Assembly: GCA_038749535.1 (NCBI GenBank)
Contig: JBCDHX010000004.1
Span: 17,603-81,602 of the forward strand
Direction of reading: 5' to 3'
Source: Bacteroidota bacterium
GTDB taxonomy: Bacteria > Bacteroidota > Bacteroidia > Chitinophagales > Saprospiraceae
DNA length: 64,000 nt
Shown: one piece after another, positions 4,622 to 52,260 of the stretch
How the letters are laid out: each line of letters begins with the position of its first letter
How positions within the stretch are numbered: the first letter of the stretch is position 1
The notes under the pieces: model-generated
Seen by the model: only the letters and a program-made list of their open reading frames with translations
The model's database searches: none
Told to the model about the DNA's origin: nothing
Position numbers and translations under genes: made by a program

Positions 4622-5614
4622 ATGAAATCGATCACACTAATTATTTACAGTCTTCTGTTCATCAACCTATCTGCTTATGCTGTTCAGCCCGATCAGCAGA
4701 GCTTATTTGATGTATTTCAGGAGCAAGATTTACTGGAAGTCACCTTAAAAACAGATTTTGATCTTATCCTAGCTGATAAACGCAATGAAGAATATCAGCC
4801 TGCGACATTCATCTATCTCAATGCAGCAGATGAAGAAGTACTAGAAAACATCAAAATCAAACAACGTGGAAAGTACCGCAGACGCGTTTGTGATATGCCA
4901 CCTCTGAAATTGAATTTTGACAAAAGCGATCTAGCAGATAAAGGTCTTGCGAAATTTGACAAAATGAAGCTAGTGACTTACTGCATGGATTCTCCTAGCT
5001 CGAAAGAAGCTATCGTCAAAGAATACTTGGCATACCAGATGTACCAAGAACTGACGCCTTATAGCTATCGTACGCAGCTCGTCAAGATTACTTATATCGA
5101 TACGGACAATCCGCGTCGCAAGACTCGTCACTTTGGATTTTTGATTGAAAGCACTTCTGAATTAGAGGCACGCATCGACGCAGAAGAGGTAGAGGCATTC
5201 AACTTACAGGCTAATGAGTTCAATCTAAAGCAGGAAGCTTTAGTAGCTAATTTTCAATACATGATCGGTAATGCAGACTGGGACCGTGTCACCATGCGCA
5301 ACGTCAAAATACTGAAACCAACAAATGGTGGCAAACTACTTTTAGTCCCTTATGATTTTGATTTCAGCGGCATGGTAGACGCCAATTATGCAATACCGAA
5401 TACCACACTAGGCTTGGACTCAGTGCAGCAACGCGCTTATTTAGGGACTCGTCAGGATAAGAAAGCACTAATCGCCATTGAGAGCTATTTTGTGCGCAAA
5501 AGAGATCAACTATACGAAGTCATCGAAAACTGTCGCTACCTTAATCGCGTAGATCGACAAGAGGTGATTAATTATCTGGATACTTATTATGATGCTTCGA
5601 CAATTGCTCGATAA
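4622..5614 (+). CDS. Hypothetical secreted protein
   Basis: Long ORF. The start was moved to MKSITLIIYSLLFINLSAYA (signal peptide). I recognise no family. Confidence 0.6.
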   Translation: MKSITLIIYSLLFINLSAYAVQPDQQSLFDVFQEQDLLEVTLKTDFDLILADKRNEEYQPATFIYLNAADEEVLENIKIKQRGKYRRRVCDMPPLKLNFDKSDLADKGLAKFDKMKLVTYCMDSPSSKEAIVKEYLAYQMYQELTPYSYRTQLVKITYIDTDNPRRKTRHFGFLIESTSELEARIDAEEVEAFNLQANEFNLKQEALVANFQYMIGNADWDRVTMRNVKILKPTNGGKLLLVPYDFDFSGMVDANYAIPNTTLGLDSVQQRAYLGTRQDKKALIAIESYFVRKRDQLYEVIENCRYLNRVDRQEVINYLDTYYDASTIAR

Positions 5615-5648
5615 ACTGCTGTAAAAGTATTCGATTTATCAATACATG

Positions 5649-5693
5649 AAGGGTGAAAGTGACCAGTTGGTTGCTTTCACCCTTTTGCATTTT
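5649..5693 (+). terminator. Intrinsic terminator after the 4622..5614 gene
   Basis: An 11-bp stem AAGGGTGAAAG / CTTTCACCCTT is followed by TTGCATTTT. Confidence 0.6.
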
Positions 5694-5934: not shown

Positions 5935-7260
5935 ATGAAACGCCGCGATTTTGTCAAAAAATCATCCTTACTAGCAGGAGCGACCACCATCGTTCCTTCC
6001 ATGCTAGCTGCCAAAGCACATATCGACGGTGAAGATGCCATCAAAGTCGGACTCGTAGGCTGCGGCGGACGTGGCACAGGTGCTATCATGCAAGCCTTAC
6101 AATCCGGTCAAAATGTACAGCTAGTCGCCATGGCGGATGCTTTCAAAGATCGACTGGATAAGTGTTACAATCGCATCACCGATCCTGACTTCAAAGACTG
6201 GTCCTCTGGACAACCTGTCAACGTCCGCGATCGAGTGGTCGTGAGTCCTGAGCATCGCTTCGTAGGTTTTGAAGCTTACGAAAAAGTACTGCCGCTAGTC
6301 GATGTAGTCATTTTAGCAACTCCACCGGGTTTCCGTCCTATGCACTTCGATGCTGCCATCAAAGCAGGCAAGCACGTCTTCATGGAAAAACCACTGGCTG
6401 TAGATGCACCAGGCGTACAGCAGGTACTGGAGACGGCAAAACTCGCCAAAGAAAAGAAACTCAATGTCATCGTCGGGCTACAACGTCACTATCAAAAGAA
6501 ATATCAAGAGTGGGTCGATATGCTTCAAAATGGCGTCATTGGTGATATTACTTCTTCTCAGGTGTACTGGAACAGCGGCGGCGTCTGGGTGCGCCCACGC
6601 GAAGCCGGAATGACAGAAATGGAGTATCAAATGCGCAATTGGTACTACTTTAATTGGCTATGCGGCGATCATATCAATGAGCAGCACATCCATAATTTGG
6701 ATGTCGGCAATTGGGTCAAGCAGGCTTACCCAATCAAAGCGCAAGGTATGGGTGGACGTCTGGTCAGGACAGGAAAAGATCATGGCGAAATTTTCGATCA
6801 CCATTGTGTACAATATGAATATGCCGACGGTAGCACCATGTTTAGCCAATGTCGTCACATGCCCAACACAGATTTTAAAGTATCAGAAGCATTCAATGGT
6901 ACAAGCGGAAGCGCACCAGAGCCCGGCGTCATCAAAACCAAAACTGGTTATCGCCTCATGCGCTACAATGACAAAAAAGACCCCAATCCGTATCAAGTGG
7001 AGCACGATTTGCTCTTCAAAGCCATTGCCAAAGGCGACTACAAATATGCAGACGCTGAAAACGGAGCAAAAAGTACCATGACCGCGATCATAGGACGTAT
7101 GGCAACCTACTCCGGCAAAACGATCGAATGGGATGCTGCAATGAATTCTAAAATTAGTCTAGCACCTGCAAAGTACGACTTTGCAGCTACGCCACCTGTG
7201 CTACCGGATGCCAATGGATTTTATCCGATTGCTGTGCCGGGTGTGACGGAAGTTCTGTAG
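5935..7260 (+). CDS. Gfo/Idh/MocA-family NAD(P)-dependent oxidoreductase with a Tat signal
   Basis: MKRRDFVKKSSLLAGATT is a twin-arginine signal. VGLVGCGGRGTG is a Rossmann motif. The start was moved from 5875 to an internal Met. Confidence 0.8.
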   Translation: MKRRDFVKKSSLLAGATTIVPSMLAAKAHIDGEDAIKVGLVGCGGRGTGAIMQALQSGQNVQLVAMADAFKDRLDKCYNRITDPDFKDWSSGQPVNVRDRVVVSPEHRFVGFEAYEKVLPLVDVVILATPPGFRPMHFDAAIKAGKHVFMEKPLAVDAPGVQQVLETAKLAKEKKLNVIVGLQRHYQKKYQEWVDMLQNGVIGDITSSQVYWNSGGVWVRPREAGMTEMEYQMRNWYYFNWLCGDHINEQHIHNLDVGNWVKQAYPIKAQGMGGRLVRTGKDHGEIFDHHCVQYEYADGSTMFSQCRHMPNTDFKVSEAFNGTSGSAPEPGVIKTKTGYRLMRYNDKKDPNPYQVEHDLLFKAIAKGDYKYADAENGAKSTMTAIIGRMATYSGKTIEWDAAMNSKISLAPAKYDFAATPPVLPDANGFYPIAVPGVTEVL

Positions 7261-8554: not shown

Positions 8555-9448
8555 ATGATTCACACACTCGACCTTCAATTTTTAGATAGCACCTCTACCA
8601 TCGCCGCTTTTTTAGTGGAGGCTGGAGACGAGTATATTCTGGTAGAAACCGGTCCACATTCGACTCTGCCACAGTTAAAAAAAGCAATGGTGCAATATGG
8701 TATTGAGCTGACCGACATTAAACACGTTTTTCTGACGCATATTCATTTCGATCATGCCGGAGCAGCTTGGGCGTTGGCGAAACATGGTGCGACTATTCAT
8801 GTGCATCCACAAGGCAAACGCCATCTGCAAGATCCGACGCGACTCTACGAATCAGCGAGACGCATCTATCAAGACAAGATGGAATACTTGTGGGGTAAGA
8901 TGGAAGGGATAGCGGAAGAGCAATTGCATATCTGCGCACATAAAGAAATCATCGAAGTTAATGGTTTGAAAATCAAAGCTTTACATACTCCCGGTCATGC
9001 GGTGCATCATATTGCTTGGCGTATCGGTGATGCGATAATGACGGGTGATGTGGCTGGTGTCAGGATCAAAGATGAGCTGGTCGTGCCGCCTTGTCCACCG
9101 CCGGATATTCATGTAGCAGATTGGCGGCGTTCTTTGGATATTTTGAGAGCGGAAAATGCTGATGTGTTTTATCTGACCCACTTTGGAAAGGTGGAAAGTA
9201 CGGTACAACATTTGGTTGATTTGGAGCGGCTACTATTAGATTGGGCAAATTGGATAAAGCCTCATGCCGAAGCTGATCGACCTGTGCAGGAAGTCATTCC
9301 TGAATTTACGGCTTATGTACAGGGACAGTTGAAAACAGCCGGAATCACAGATGCTGCCGATCTTGAAAGATACGAAAAAGCCAATCCTTCTTGGATGAGT
9401 GTTGCCGGACTGATGCGGTATTGGAAGAAGATCGGTTTGCAACAATAA
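8555..9448 (+). CDS. MBL-fold metallo-hydrolase
   Basis: THIHFDHAG is an HxHxDH metal-binding motif. Confidence 0.8.
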   Translation: MIHTLDLQFLDSTSTIAAFLVEAGDEYILVETGPHSTLPQLKKAMVQYGIELTDIKHVFLTHIHFDHAGAAWALAKHGATIHVHPQGKRHLQDPTRLYESARRIYQDKMEYLWGKMEGIAEEQLHICAHKEIIEVNGLKIKALHTPGHAVHHIAWRIGDAIMTGDVAGVRIKDELVVPPCPPPDIHVADWRRSLDILRAENADVFYLTHFGKVESTVQHLVDLERLLLDWANWIKPHAEADRPVQEVIPEFTAYVQGQLKTAGITDAADLERYEKANPSWMSVAGLMRYWKKIGLQQ

Positions 9449-9454
9449 AAGAAT

Positions 9455-10159
9455 ATGAAGCTCAATAAATACATTGCTCATGCTGGTGTTTGCTCTCGAC
9501 GTGATGCCGGAGAACTTGTCAAGAAAGGAAAAGTGACCGTCAATGGAGAAGTGAAACTAGAGCCTTGGTATGAAGTCAAAGAGACAGATCGAGTAGAATA
9601 TAACGAAAAAGTTGTCCGACTAGAAGAAAAGAAAATATATATCTTGCTCAATAAACCGAAAAATACCATCACCAGTCTTAAAGACGAACGCGGTCGAAAA
9701 ACAGTCTATGACATCGTCAAAAATCATGTGGAAGAACGCATCTATCCAGTCGGTCGATTAGATAGGCAGACGCTAGGATTACTGGTTTTGACGAATGATG
9801 GCGATCTAGCACAAAAGCTGGCTCATCCTTCTCACGAGATCCAAAAATACTACGAAGTCACATTAGATAAATCGGTCTCCAAAGCTCATTTGGAACAAAT
9901 CAAAGTAGGACTCCAACTAGAAGACGGACTCGCTCCTGTAGATGGCGCACATTACATCAAAAATGACCCTATGCAAGTCGGCATTAAAATTCATATCGGT
10001 AGAAATAGAATCGTGCGACGTATTTTTGAGCATCTAGGGTATAAAGTCAAACGACTCGACCGCACTCTTTATGCTGGACTGACCAAGAAGGATTTGCCGC
10101 GTGGTCATTTTCGGCATCTGACAAAGCAAGAGGTAATTATGCTGAAGCATTTTATTTGA
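9455..10159 (+). CDS. Pseudouridine synthase, RsuA/RluB family
   Basis: N-terminal S4 domain (LNKYIAHAGVCSRRDAGELVKKGKVTVNG) plus the catalytic GRLD motif. Confidence 0.85.
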   Translation: MKLNKYIAHAGVCSRRDAGELVKKGKVTVNGEVKLEPWYEVKETDRVEYNEKVVRLEEKKIYILLNKPKNTITSLKDERGRKTVYDIVKNHVEERIYPVGRLDRQTLGLLVLTNDGDLAQKLAHPSHEIQKYYEVTLDKSVSKAHLEQIKVGLQLEDGLAPVDGAHYIKNDPMQVGIKIHIGRNRIVRRIFEHLGYKVKRLDRTLYAGLTKKDLPRGHFRHLTKQEVIMLKHFI

Positions 10160-30156: not shown

Positions 30157-30843
30157 CTAAATATACAACTCCTCTTCCCCAAAAATTCGACCATTGTTAC
30201 ACCTTAATATACGGGAAGGAAAATTTTGTAAGATGCGATAGTCATGCGTAGCAAAAAGTACGGCTGTACGACGTCGAGCAGATAATTCTTTCAACAGCAT
30301 CAGGATGTCATCAGAAGTTTCAGGATCGAGGTTGCCAGTAGGTTCATCTGCAATGATCAAAACGGGTTCGTTGAGAATCGCCCTAGCAATGACCACTCGC
30401 TGCTGCTCACCTCCCGAAAGCTGATGCGGCATTTTCTGCGCTTTATTCTCCAATCCGACTTCGGCGAGGACTTCTTGACAGCGGCGGTCGATCTTCTTGT
30501 TGTCTTTCCAGCCAGTTGCTTTCAGCACAAACTTCAGATTGTCCGATACAGAGCGATCTGATAGCAGATTGAAATCCTGAAAGACAATCCCCAACTTTCG
30601 TCGCAGCGCTGGAATGGTTTTGCGATTGAGTTGTTGTAAATCAAATCCAGCGACGAAACCTGTTCCTTTTTGGAGCGGCAGCGCACCATATAGTGTTTTG
30701 AGTAAACTAGACTTGCCACTTCCGGTCTTCCCGATCAGATAAACGAATGCTCCAGCGGTCAGCTCCAAAGAGACGTCTTTAAGGACGAGTTGATCGACTT
30801 GAGCGATACTAGCTTGTTGTAGATTGACGATTACGGATTGCAT
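30157..30843 (-). CDS. ftsE: Cell-division ABC transporter ATP-binding protein FtsE-like
   Basis: Walker [10 protein letters not shown], signature LSGGEQQR and Walker B LIIADEPT. Length 228 aa. Confidence 0.75.
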
Positions 30844-31021
30844 TTAGCAAAATTAGCAAAGGATTCAATGGAATGAGCAAAATCAGGAAGCAGTTTGCTC
30901 AAAAAAGCGATTAAGGATTTTTCAGTAAAGTAATTATTGAGCGACATAAAATTTAAATTTCGTCAAAAAAATAAATTAATAAGTATCAAATATTTAAATT
31001 TTATAGCAAATCGTTAAAATA

Positions 31022-31054
31022 TTTGCAGCATATAGGTCTTTTACTTTACATTTG
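31022..31054 (+). promoter_or_regulatory. Bacteroidota-type promoter (TTTG-N21-TACATTTG) upstream of the tRNA-like genes
   Basis: TACATTTG fits the TAnnTTTG -7 consensus. A TTTG lies about 21 nt upstream. Confidence 0.4.
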
Positions 31055-31099
31055 TCCTATCGAAAGAAACACAGAAGCGTGTTGTATTTTTTGATAACA

Positions 31100-31246
31100 C
31101 TGTAAGGTGACGAAATTGGCAGCCGTGCCCTCCCGTCTCGAGGGTGAGGAATAATAGGATAAACGCAGCATAGTGGGTTGACCACCAATATTTATATTGT
31201 GTTGTGGCTAACTACCTCTTGAAGGTTCGACTCCTTCCCTTACAGC
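31100..31246 (+). ncRNA. tRNA-like RNA, copy 1 (~146 nt, ~75-nt insertion at the variable region)
   Basis: Acceptor stem CTGTAAGG / CCTTACAG. D arm ACG-AAATTGGCAGC-CGT. A stem-loop CCCTC-CCGTCTC-GAGGG takes the anticodon-arm position. The T arm is GAAGG-TTCGACT-CCTTC. Confidence 0.5.
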
Positions 31247-31305
31247 GATTAGAATAGTGAATAACGAAATCTCTAAGATTGATATTCGATATTCTCATAT
31301 TTACA

Positions 31306-31425
31306 CTGTAAGGTGACGAAATTGGCAGCCGTGCCCTCCTGTCTCGGGGGTGAGGAAATTGGGATAAACACTAACCCTGTTAGCAGCTAACCACCTCTTG
31401 AAGGTTCGACTCCTTCCCTTACAGC
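31306..31425 (+). ncRNA. tRNA-like RNA, copy 2 (~119 nt, ~49-nt insertion)
   Basis: Same arms as copy 1, with two substitutions in each of the 5' and 3' conserved blocks. The anticodon-like arm is CCCTC-CTGTCTC-GGGGG. Confidence 0.5.
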
Positions 31426-31447
31426 TTTTAAATTTACATAGCTTTTG

Positions 31448-31490
31448 AGGGCTAAAGAAAACAGATTTCTTTAGCCCTTTTTTTATTTTT
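31448..31490 (+). terminator. Strong intrinsic terminator after the tRNA-like pair
   Basis: A 13-bp stem AGGGCTAAAGAAA / TTTCTTTAGCCCT is followed by TTTTTTTATTTTT. Confidence 0.8.
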
Positions 31491-31522
31491 GCCGCCTTCC
31501 TAAACTTTCACAATTATTACAC

Positions 31523-32563
31523 ATGGAACACCGACCACTCGGACAGACTGACCTTAAAGTGAGCAAAATATGCTTAGGCACGATGACTTTTGGCGAACAA
31601 AACTCAGAAGCTGAAGCGCATGAGCAACTCGATTATGCCCTAGATCAAGGTATCAACTTCATAGATACAGCGGAATTGTACGCCGTCCCTAGCACTAAGA
31701 AAAACAATGGATTGACTGAAGAATACATCGGTACTTGGCTGAAAGATAGAACAGACAGAGATCAGATCATCTTAGCCACCAAAGTTACAGGACCAAGTGC
31801 CAATTTTACGTATATCCGTCCCACGCTCGACTATTCAAAAGACAGTATTCAGGCAGCTATAGAAGGTAGTTTGAGAAGATTGCAGACCGATTATGTGGAT
31901 TTGTATCAACTACATTGGCCGGAAAGAAGCACCAACTACTTTGGTCAGTTAGGCTATCAGTATAGTGAATCAGATTCTTGGTCAGATAATTTTGGAGGAG
32001 TACTAGAAACTTTAAACGGATTAATAACATCAGGTAAGATTCGGCACTATGGCATCTCTAATGAGACGCCGTGGGGCACGATGCATGTGATTCACTTAGC
32101 GGAGAAAATGGGATTGCCACGCCCTGTGAGCATTCAGAATCCATATAGTTTACTGAATAGAACTTTTGAAGTTGGTTTGGCAGAAGTAGCCATTCGAGAG
32201 CAGTGTGGTTTGCTGGCGTACTCGCCGATGGCATTTGGCTTATTGAGTGGCAAATACCACAAAAAGGAAGATAAAGCTGGCGACCGCATCAATAAGTACA
32301 AACGGCTTTCGCGCTACAACAACGATCGCGCCTATGATGCGACTACTAAGTATTTGGAGATCGCAGAAGCACACGATATGAGTCTGGCGCAGATGTCACT
32401 TGCTTTTGTCAATGATCGTCCATTTATGACTAGCAACATTATCGGTGCGACGAGTATGGAGCAACTGAAAGAGAATATTGAAAGTGCAGAAATCACGCTT
32501 TCGGAAGAGGTTTTGAAAGCCATAGAAGAAGTGCACACCACTCAGCCGAATCCTGCGCCTTAG
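31523..32563 (+). CDS. Aldo/keto reductase (Tas-like NADP-dependent oxidoreductase)
   Basis: LGTMTFGEQ, INFIDTAELY and DLYQLHWP are present. Confidence 0.9.
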   Translation: MEHRPLGQTDLKVSKICLGTMTFGEQNSEAEAHEQLDYALDQGINFIDTAELYAVPSTKKNNGLTEEYIGTWLKDRTDRDQIILATKVTGPSANFTYIRPTLDYSKDSIQAAIEGSLRRLQTDYVDLYQLHWPERSTNYFGQLGYQYSESDSWSDNFGGVLETLNGLITSGKIRHYGISNETPWGTMHVIHLAEKMGLPRPVSIQNPYSLLNRTFEVGLAEVAIREQCGLLAYSPMAFGLLSGKYHKKEDKAGDRINKYKRLSRYNNDRAYDATTKYLEIAEAHDMSLAQMSLAFVNDRPFMTSNIIGATSMEQLKENIESAEITLSEEVLKAIEEVHTTQPNPAP

Positions 32564-52122: not shown

Positions 52123-52260
52123 CATCCAAAATGGTCAACTTTGTCATAGCAATCAACACATAGGTATTATTAGTCATAATTACTAGCGTAGATCGCTTAG
52201 GGAGGATGCCGAAAATCCTAGAAAAGAGTAGGTATTTTAATCACACAATACTACGTTAAT

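Follow-up and report, generated by a model that had tools for sequence, protein, structure and literature searches.

A family of tRNA-shaped RNAs with aspartate-type identity nucleotides and a large structured extra arm in Bacteroidota and phages

Few RNAs built like transfer RNA (tRNA) serve purposes other than decoding; transfer-messenger RNA (tmRNA) and the Y RNAs are examples, and each has given rise to a field of its own. tmRNA combines an acceptor/T module with a large extra domain, can be charged and is sometimes phage-encoded; it has a tag reading frame and pseudoknots but no anticodon arm. Among tRNAs proper, the variable region measures 4–5 nucleotides (nt) in class I and roughly 13–25 nt in class II, and a purine at position 37 together with U33 is near-universal among elongators. 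In YrlA, a tRNA-like domain has D, T and acceptor-like arms, some of these RNAs are processed by RNase P and have CCA added, the acceptor-like stem closes on itself as a hairpin, and the 5′ and 3′ ends form the Rsr-binding stem with its GNCGAAN0-1G motif, encoded next to rsr (PMC4201824). The aspartate identity of bacterial tRNA-Asp resides in G73, G10, G34, U35, C36 and C38, all but G10 being strong determinants, and G1-C72 and G2-C71 are conserved (Giege and Eriani, PMC9976931). Here we describe two co-oriented tRNA-shaped genes, at 31100–31246 and 31306–31425 on the + strand of a 64,000-nt stretch of Bacteroidota DNA (contig JBCDHX010000004.1; hereafter the window), and the RNA family to which they belong; the locus under study spans 31022–31490 of the same strand.

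Like the class II tRNAs (Leu, Ser and Tyr), tRNA-Sec and the allo-tRNAs (PMC5389517), members of this family have a 3-base-pair (bp) D stem and an extra arm ahead of the T arm, and their D arm (UGAUGAAAUUGGCAGACAUG) is close to that of the tRNA-Leu genes found in the same phage tRNA arrays; genuine tRNA-Leu genes score 49–55 bits with the family covariance model R1. They differ from class II tRNAs in the arm, which measures 45–150 nt, contains a bulge, an internal loop and sometimes a junction and lies outside the size range of either variable-region class, and in having G73 rather than A73, an Asp-type anticodon and a pyrimidine at position 37. With bacterial tRNA-Asp they share the anticodon stem-loop C31-[Y U G U C N C]-G39, G73 and G2-C71, whereas U1-A72, A10 more often than G10, U37 instead of A37, the class II core and the giant arm set them apart. 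Their acceptor/T module and large extra domain recall tmRNA, but the cloverleaf is complete, anticodon arm included, and the insert sits at the variable-arm position. In contrast to YrlA, their 5′ and 3′ ends form the acceptor stem, and across 126 cellular and 50 viral loci no rsr/TROVE gene recurs as a neighbour.

Pairwise alignment of the two window copies shows 2 substitutions between their 5′ blocks (31100–31161 and 31306–31367) and a common 3′ block running from GCTAAC through CAGC. Block motifs of 17–19 nt are confined to the two copies within the window (two matches in 0/100 shuffles), and R1 matches the window only at 31100–31246 (145.9 bits) and 31306–31425 (122.7 bits). Standard models pass both genes over: ARAGORN calls no tRNA or tmRNA anywhere in the window and none of 155 native family copies, Rfam 15 returns nothing for 31022–31490 at its gathering threshold, and at E ≤ 10 it yields chance-level matches plus a 17-nt T-arm match to tmRNA (7.3 bits, gathering threshold 47), with no match of the tRNA family RF00005 to either gene. 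At six further loci Rfam matched no member, and 24 tRNAs and one GOLLD RNA scored normally there. When the arm was deleted or swapped in silico for a 4-bp stem with a tetraloop, ARAGORN called 120 of the 155 copies, 116 of them as tRNA-Asp(gtc). A sequence-only reading of the locus had proposed two tRNA-like genes with near-identical end blocks, a large insertion at the variable-arm position and no ordinary decoding role; reading, alignment and the covariance model bear out the architecture, the lack of ARAGORN or Rfam tRNA calls on native copies agrees with the last point, and neither the normal tRNA call nor the known RNA family that it had named as counter-evidence came from ARAGORN or Rfam 15.

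The family is absent from Rfam 15, and no description of it was found in the full-text literature searched. One published catalogue of phage RNAs (PMC10690425) lists an entry, DNAVirus_1850, with 27 IMG/VR instances, one of them overlapping an ARAGORN tRNA-Asp call; this entry might equal the phage members described below. The fluoride (crcB) riboswitch has a superficially similar AUAAAC-hairpin-GCUAA core, but it gave no Rfam match and was set aside.

Sequence-pattern scans and the covariance model together gave about 200 copies. The collection scans were pattern-based, and counts drawn from them refer to the matches listed and are lower bounds; the taxonomic range is a lower bound too, because the scans cover only part of the pattern matches. 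The genome scan, which used the D loop and T loop, returned mostly real tRNAs, its first bulk being false positives in which a real tRNA lies 3′ of a chance TTGGCAGCCG, plus 7 true homologues in named Bacteroidota, including two Lewinella, two Saprospiraceae/Bacteroidia metagenome-assembled genomes (MAGs), a Flammeovirgaceae MAG and a Bacteroidota MAG. The metagenome pattern addressed only the last 40 nt (GCTAA-N8-TG-N2-GGTTCGA-N-TCC-N8-CAGC) and matched at least 120 contigs, from which about 116 unique full-length members of 110–230 nt were recovered from soil, water and marine sources; their 5′ halves, which the pattern leaves unconstrained, are nonetheless strongly conserved. R1, built from 70 representatives with at most 90% mutual identity, finds 157 copies in 126 cellular or metagenomic loci. 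A pattern scan of a plasmid collection gave no match.

Covariation was assessed on a MAFFT alignment of 70 homologues, not fitted to the structure, for the cloverleaf and two extra-arm helices. In this alignment 99.0% of cells are paired, and compensatory changes occur at 18 of 27 pairs (256 cells), a level of pairing and compensation reached by 0/500 shuffles; with partners slid by 1–3 columns as a control, 51–60% of cells were paired. For the long type, aligned separately, compensatory changes affect 24 of 36 pairs. The RNA begins with a 7-bp acceptor, U8 and G9, followed by the 3-bp D stem with the loop AAA(U)nUUGGCAG, G26, a 5-bp stem with a 7-nt loop, U44, the extra arm, two nucleotides, the T arm (5-bp stem, GGUUCGAnUCC loop), G73 and C74, so that the acceptor, anticodon stem and loop, T arm and D-loop GG of a four-arm cloverleaf are all present. 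CCA is encoded in merely 26 of 174 copies. Together, these results show a conserved, structured, tRNA-shaped gene family on a class II (tRNA-Leu-like) core, with covariation in every helix and compensatory changes in the place of the random decay that would have spoken for a tRNA pseudogene. A pseudoknot between the UCUC loop and an arm GGGAUA was considered and rejected, as the variants GGAAUAAAC and GGAACAAAC occur without compensation.

The arm that replaces the variable arm is itself a structured domain of 45–150 nt, bringing the total RNA to as much as 230 nt. Its core, found in all members, consists of a 4-bp closing helix, a 4–5-nt bulge on the 5′ strand only, a 3-bp helix in which all three pairs are compensatory, and an A-rich internal loop with GAUAAAC opposite GCUAA(C); the distal part is variable. 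Short members (110–125 nt) end in a small terminal hairpin, often with a GAAA, GCAA or GUAA cap. Long members (142–230 nt) add a 6-bp helix, in which 5 of 6 pairs are compensatory, and then a conserved GGGUUGACCAC element; the GGGUUGACCAC/GGGTTGACCAC loop motif is present in 79 of 131 unique copies. Tandem copies, 22–141 nt apart, occur at 28 or more loci; pairs of a long and a short copy, as in the window, recur at L153, L154, L189, L211 and L240, and Lewinella sp. W8 has five alternating copies. Pairing of the GAC of the GGGUUGACCAC loop with the GUC anticodon, as a codon mimic, was also considered; no support is left for it, because in the sole case that looked compensatory (L044, AUC with GAU) the pairing belongs to a hairpin stem, UCUGA-UCA-UCAGA.

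In the compact long type, 35 of 40 sequences contain a palindrome, perfect and at least 6 nt long, in the 22 nt that follow GACCAC (shuffled segments: mean 11.4, maximum 20 of 40 in 500 trials). Nine self-complementary hexamers occupy this position: AUUAAU, GUGCAC, GCAUGC, GCGCGC, UUGCAA, CCGCGG, AAUAUU, GCUAGC and GCCGGC. Because a 6-nt palindrome cannot form a hairpin, selection that keeps self-complementarity while the sequence changes among copies points to intermolecular pairing and suggests that long copies may homodimerise through a kissing loop. The HIV-1 dimerisation site (DIS) is a parallel for such hexamers; it and the multimeric, phage-associated GOLLD/ROOL RNAs resemble the long type in exposed, A-flanked 6-nt palindromes (GCGCGC, GUGCAC) but have no sequence or structure homology to the family, the case for dimerisation here coming from the palindrome pattern alone.

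The two window copies fit this frame. Copy 1, of the long type, measures 146 nt from U1 to C74 (31101–31246), with the acceptor at 31101–07/31238–44, the D arm at 31110–26, the anticodon-like arm at 31128–44 (loop CCGUCUC, 31133–39), the T arm at 31221–37, G73 at 31245 and C74 at 31246, and its minimum-free-energy fold reproduces the same cloverleaf. Its 73-nt extra-arm domain (31146–31218) is closed by GAGG/CCTC (31146–49/31215–18) and continues with the bulge AATAA, TAG/CTA (31155–57/31212–14), GATAAAC (31158–64) opposite GCTAA (31207–11), and then the inner stem, the conserved loop GGGTTGACCAC (31175–85) and the palindrome AATATT (31187–31192), its AAUAUU hexamer. Copy 2, of the short type, measures 119 nt from U1 to C74 (31307–31425), with the acceptor at 31307–13/31417–23, the anticodon-like arm at 31334–50 (loop CUGUCUC, 31339–45), the T arm at 31400–16, G73 at 31424, C74 at 31425 and a 46-nt extra arm at 31352–97 (GAGG/CCTC, TGG/CCA, GATAAAC at 31363–69, a hairpin and GCTAA at 31386–90).

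Much of the first description of these copies holds: the cloverleaf stems, the T arm GAAGG-TTCGACT-CCTTC, the loop C(C/U)GUCUC and an A-to-G stem substitution that turns U-A into U-G and so preserves pairing are present as claimed. Other parts do not survive comparison with the family. The supposed 8-bp acceptor is a 7-bp stem plus G73, and an eighth pair is not a family feature because no single nucleotide precedes U1: C stands there in 73 copies, U in 50, A in 47 and G in 4. The two inserts, described as largely different, both hold the family core (4 bp, a 4–5-nt bulge, 3 bp and GAUAAAC ... GCUAA), and the alternative hairpins proposed for them (GTGG/CCAC/GTGG and CTAAC/GTTAG/CTAAC) are not kept in homologues. 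The suggested use of the tRNA frame as a scaffold for an unrelated small RNA finds no support, since the insert too is conserved and structured as a domain of its own.

The nucleotides held fixed in the family coincide in large part with the aspartate identity set. U1-A72 and G2-C71 are invariant in 70/70 sequences, whereas acceptor pairs 3–7 covary freely, and all copies end in CAGC (G73, C74), including 16 model-only copies that lie outside the search pattern. Among 131 unique copies the anticodon loop reads Y-U-G-U-C-N-C, with a pyrimidine at position 32, U33 in 89%, G34 in 96% and U35, C36 and C38 in 100%; the base at position 37 is most often U (83%), followed by C (9%, which makes a pyrimidine in 92%), G (7%) and A (1%), so that the elongator combination of U33 with a purine at 37 is not the family pattern. 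The family retains all five strong Asp determinants together with G2-C71. Pair 10-25 is A-U in 55 and G-C in 9 of the 70 sequences.

Five copies carry A or U at position 34 and are otherwise unchanged. Two copies of L212 (569–689 and 820–931) have UUC loops (CUUUCCC and CUUUCUC), and two copies of L044 (1–108 and 139–286) and one of L148 (2509–2659) have AUC loops (CUAUCUC); U35, C36 and C38 are kept in all of them.

Members are also carried by phages. At least 46 IMG/VR contigs match the 3′ pattern and 44 carry a member, nearly all of the long type (130–147 bits); about half of these adjoin tRNA genes, whereas in the sequence retrieved around the others no further tRNA occurs. Deposited or cultured phages gave one match, the uncultured 636-kilobase (kb) phage LR756504.1, where a member (131 bits) lies among nine tRNA genes. 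Members sit inside phage-type tRNA arrays at L241, L250, L251, L256, L279 and L283, and also at L131; the arrays of L250 (18 tRNAs) and L241 (24 tRNAs) each include a canonical tRNA-Asp(GTC), and the array tRNAs inspected there end in N73-C74 and an A-rich trailer, with C74 alone templated and no encoded CCA, as do the family members. The 50 viral loci otherwise hold ordinary phage genes, with no recurrent partner.

The phage and phage-type loci contain further unusual elements. In L241 a GOLLD RNA (RF02032, 304.8 bits) at 9344–9761 on the − strand shares the array with the member at 6032–6177, 3.2 kb away. Two phage copies, L261 3805–3923 (72.7 bits) and L286 2907–3048 (101.8 bits), have an intact arm, T arm and 3′ acceptor strand, but the 5′ acceptor, the D arm and the 5′ half of the anticodon arm are replaced or scrambled, and they look decaying or rearranged. 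tRNA-Leu-like elements with the acceptor GCAAGG../..CCTTGC, a Leu-type D arm and a normal T arm occur on IMG/VR contigs at L005 6803–6900, L007 2519–2614 and 2703–2798, L010 5112–5209 and L011 3612–3708, and near 124–220 in L001, L006 and L009; they are uncalled by ARAGORN, score about 48 bits with R1 and each follow a conserved block ending GAATTGGCAGCCTGG. Read by eye, the L005 element has an 8-nt anticodon-like loop, CUAUC-GUUAUAAA-GGUAG. At 932–1056 (− strand) of L008, which comes from a 132-kb IMG/VR contig, lies a 125-nt tRNA-like element scoring 48.6 bits. Its D arm (GGCGAAAATTGGCAGCCGCG) and T arm are those of the family, whereas its middle differs and lacks both the GUCUC loop and GCUAA; the element may be distantly related to the family or represent a separate type of oversized tRNA-like phage RNA. 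Within the phage tRNA arrays, ARAGORN also labels L250 5122–5196, L251 3255–3330 and L261 6234–6325 as tRNA-???, assigning them anticodons of 2 nt (tt) or 4 nt (attg); apart from these unusual anticodon loops, the tRNAs look normal.

In cellular loci only one neighbour recurs strongly, a divergent gene of the Lrp/AsnC family located 133–284 nt upstream of the first RNA in 59 loci, and in 49 of the 76 loci having at least 700 nt of upstream flank. Its orthologues reach down to 38% identity. Among structures in the PDB it matches E. coli AsnC best (2CG4; E 3.9e-33, 118 bits; next best 76 bits), its best NCBIfam match is 'transcriptional regulator AsnC' (160.6 bits, below the equivalog cut-off of 227; next family 64 bits), and source annotations list it either as an AsnC of Chitinophagaceae or as 'regulator for asnA, asnC and gidA'. 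In the reverse direction, starting from the regulator protein, all 3 loci retrieved had the RNA on the other strand, about 140 nt upstream. TrmB recurs in 13 cellular loci.

In two Lewinella loci the same two small genes flank the RNA array (L045 4227–4808, − strand, and 6316–6693, + strand; L038 5787–6278, + strand, and 5300–5680, − strand). By eye these encode an asparaginase-domain-like protein of about 160–190 amino acids (VTGGTFDKEY) and, immediately upstream, a 125-amino-acid protein.

Taking these observations together, we lean towards the view that the family consists of processed, non-standard tRNA-like RNAs that would be charged by aspartyl-tRNA synthetase (AspRS) and, being poor or excluded decoders, would act as a carrier, sensor or decoy. 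That the RNA has a 7-bp acceptor, shares its gene ends with tRNA genes and resides in tRNA arrays suggests processing of the tRNA kind, in which RNase P and a 3′ nuclease would trim the precursor and CCA would be added; the RNA would then fold into an L shape through contacts between the D-loop GG and the T loop, and AspRS would aspartylate it, as the kept Asp identity set implies. Pyrimidine 37, imperfect U33, the bulky arm and a coexisting tRNA-Asp argue for an Asp-charged carrier, sensor or decoy rather than an elongator. The arm would supply the specific function, either as a partner-binding surface or through homodimerisation in long copies, and in Chitinophagaceae-type genomes expression would probably be controlled by the adjacent AsnC-like, amino-acid-responsive regulator. 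The tRNA mimic or non-ribosomal aminoacyl carrier suggested by the sequence-only reading thus remains the best class of explanation, now probably narrowed to aspartate identity.

Several points weigh against this proposal. The argument for aminoacylation is drawn entirely from conserved nucleotides. Two positions deviate from tRNA-Asp: A10 stands in place of G10 in about 79% of copies, and U1-A72 replaces the strictly conserved G1-C72. AspRS approaches tRNA from the variable-region side, so the huge arm might hinder charging. GCUAA, the T loop and CAGC are imposed by the metagenome and viral patterns, and their invariance rests on the smaller independent sets, the genome scan and the 16 model-only copies. 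Carriage by phages is equally compatible with an ordinary translational role. Finally, the AsnC-like neighbour is absent from the window, from Saprospiraceae loci and from phage loci, and its link to the RNA may therefore be lineage-specific synteny.

A rather unlikely alternative is that the RNA is a genuine decoding tRNA-Asp isoacceptor for GAY codons, its arm enlarged for regulation or to bind a partner. The conserved Asp identity nucleotides, the tRNA-Asp calls that ARAGORN makes once the arm is trimmed, the tRNA-type gene ends and the members in phage tRNA arrays would all fit such a role, as would the many phages in which the member is the sole tRNA-like gene nearby. A decoding tRNA, however, would hardly be expected to carry a pyrimidine at position 37 in 92% of copies and to replace U33 in 11%, to sit in the same arrays as a canonical tRNA-Asp(GTC), or to accept A or U at position 34 in 5 copies with nothing else changed.

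We also considered a tRNA-dependent asparagine device, in which AspRS would charge the RNA, GatCAB would amidate Asp to Asn, the arm and U37 would keep the product off the ribosome and AsnC would adjust expression to the supply of asparagine; we regard this as improbable. E. coli AsnC controls the divergent asnA gene, and the divergent regulator beside the family is closest to AsnC. Invariant U1-A72 occurs here together with the Asp anticodon determinants, and this is the pair that promotes amidation by bacterial GatCAB, G1-C72 preventing it (PMC1635274). The same enzyme treats a supernumerary D-loop nucleotide (U20A) as an antideterminant (PMC1635274), and the family D loop is class II-like, at least 11 nt and variable in length, which makes numbering to 20A ambiguous. 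Against the device, moreover, no gatCAB, asnA or hydrolase gene recurs near family loci, the AsnC link is missing in the window and several lineages, and the scheme offers no account of how Asn would be released or used. Its fuller version, a non-decoding Asn carrier or sensor of asparagine supply that phages have copied and whose long copies form kissing-loop homodimers matching the dimeric synthetase, we hold to be just as doubtful.

Decidedly improbable, in our estimate, is an uncharged mimic that would serve as a decoy or sponge for a tRNA-Asp binder (AspRS, Tgt, an anticodon nuclease or a defence effector) or as a multimeric assembly; that phages would use such an RNA to manipulate or protect the host tRNA pool is put no higher. 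The spread through 44 IMG/VR contigs and the 636-kb phage, the nine different hexamers at one position in 35 of 40 long-type sequences and the phage tRNA array held in common with a GOLLD RNA are what would be expected of it. Yet invariant G73, C74 and first two acceptor pairs imply recognition of the acceptor end, which an anticodon decoy would not need, and chromosomal copies beside an amino-acid regulator suggest a housekeeping or metabolic role. Decaying tRNA pseudogenes, tRNA-derived repeats or an integration-site remnant, despite the tandem duplications and the few truncated phage copies (L261, L286), are scarcely credible, because covariation (99% pairing and abundant compensatory changes) excludes pseudogenes and repeats, and about 200 copies occur in distant lineages with conserved loops, their own promoter and terminator and full-length copies in phage genomes.

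The family we favour as AspRS-charged, non-standard tRNA-like RNAs is abundant in several Bacteroidota classes, has been captured repeatedly by phages and escapes standard tRNA finders and Rfam, so that its genes now sit in unannotated intergenic sequence. It joins a precise aspartate signature to a large, evolvable RNA domain. Should the Asn-carrier version prove true, it would amount to an RNA-based route or sensor for asparagine supply in Bacteroidota.

Within the window, the two genes lie in a gap between protein-coding genes. A divergent ABC-type ATPase gene (ftsE-like) occupies 30157–30843 on the − strand upstream, an aldo/keto reductase gene 31523–32563 on the + strand downstream, and no open reading frame of 60 or more amino acids overlaps 30844–31522; neither neighbour recurs at any other family locus. 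By direct reading, a putative Bacteroidetes-type promoter precedes copy 1 on the + strand, with TTTG at 31022–31025, a 21-nt spacer and TACATTTG at 31047–31054; TTTG-N21-TACATTTG is what we take to be the Bacteroidetes promoter consensus, and it was read by eye, the promoter-scan tool having no model for the TTTG/TAnnTTTG type. At other loci TAnnTTTG motifs are common upstream of the first copy, mostly 20–60 nt away. Judged from where the promoter lies and from U1 (31101) being the conserved first nucleotide of the cloverleaf, 31055–31100 (+ strand) is a putative 5′ leader, probably removed by RNase P, with a small AACAC...GTGTT hairpin. The terminator scan finds nothing in the 59-nt spacer between the copies (31247–31305) and an intrinsic terminator after copy 2 (31447–31489, + strand; hairpin 31447–31479, 14-bp stem, 5-nt loop and T run). 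The two copies are probably co-transcribed as one precursor from their own promoter, which agrees with the dedicated transcription unit originally proposed for them.

Sigma-70-like hexamer pairs (9/12 matches) also occur at 31227–31255 and 31279–31307 on the + strand, within or just after copy 1; these are consensus matches only and probably irrelevant in an organism with TTTG/TAnnTTTG promoters. Elsewhere in the window, 52199–52234 (+ strand) matches the DUF805b motif (RF02914; 47.4 bits, gathering threshold 35.6, E 2.3e-10), the sole Rfam family above threshold in the whole stretch.

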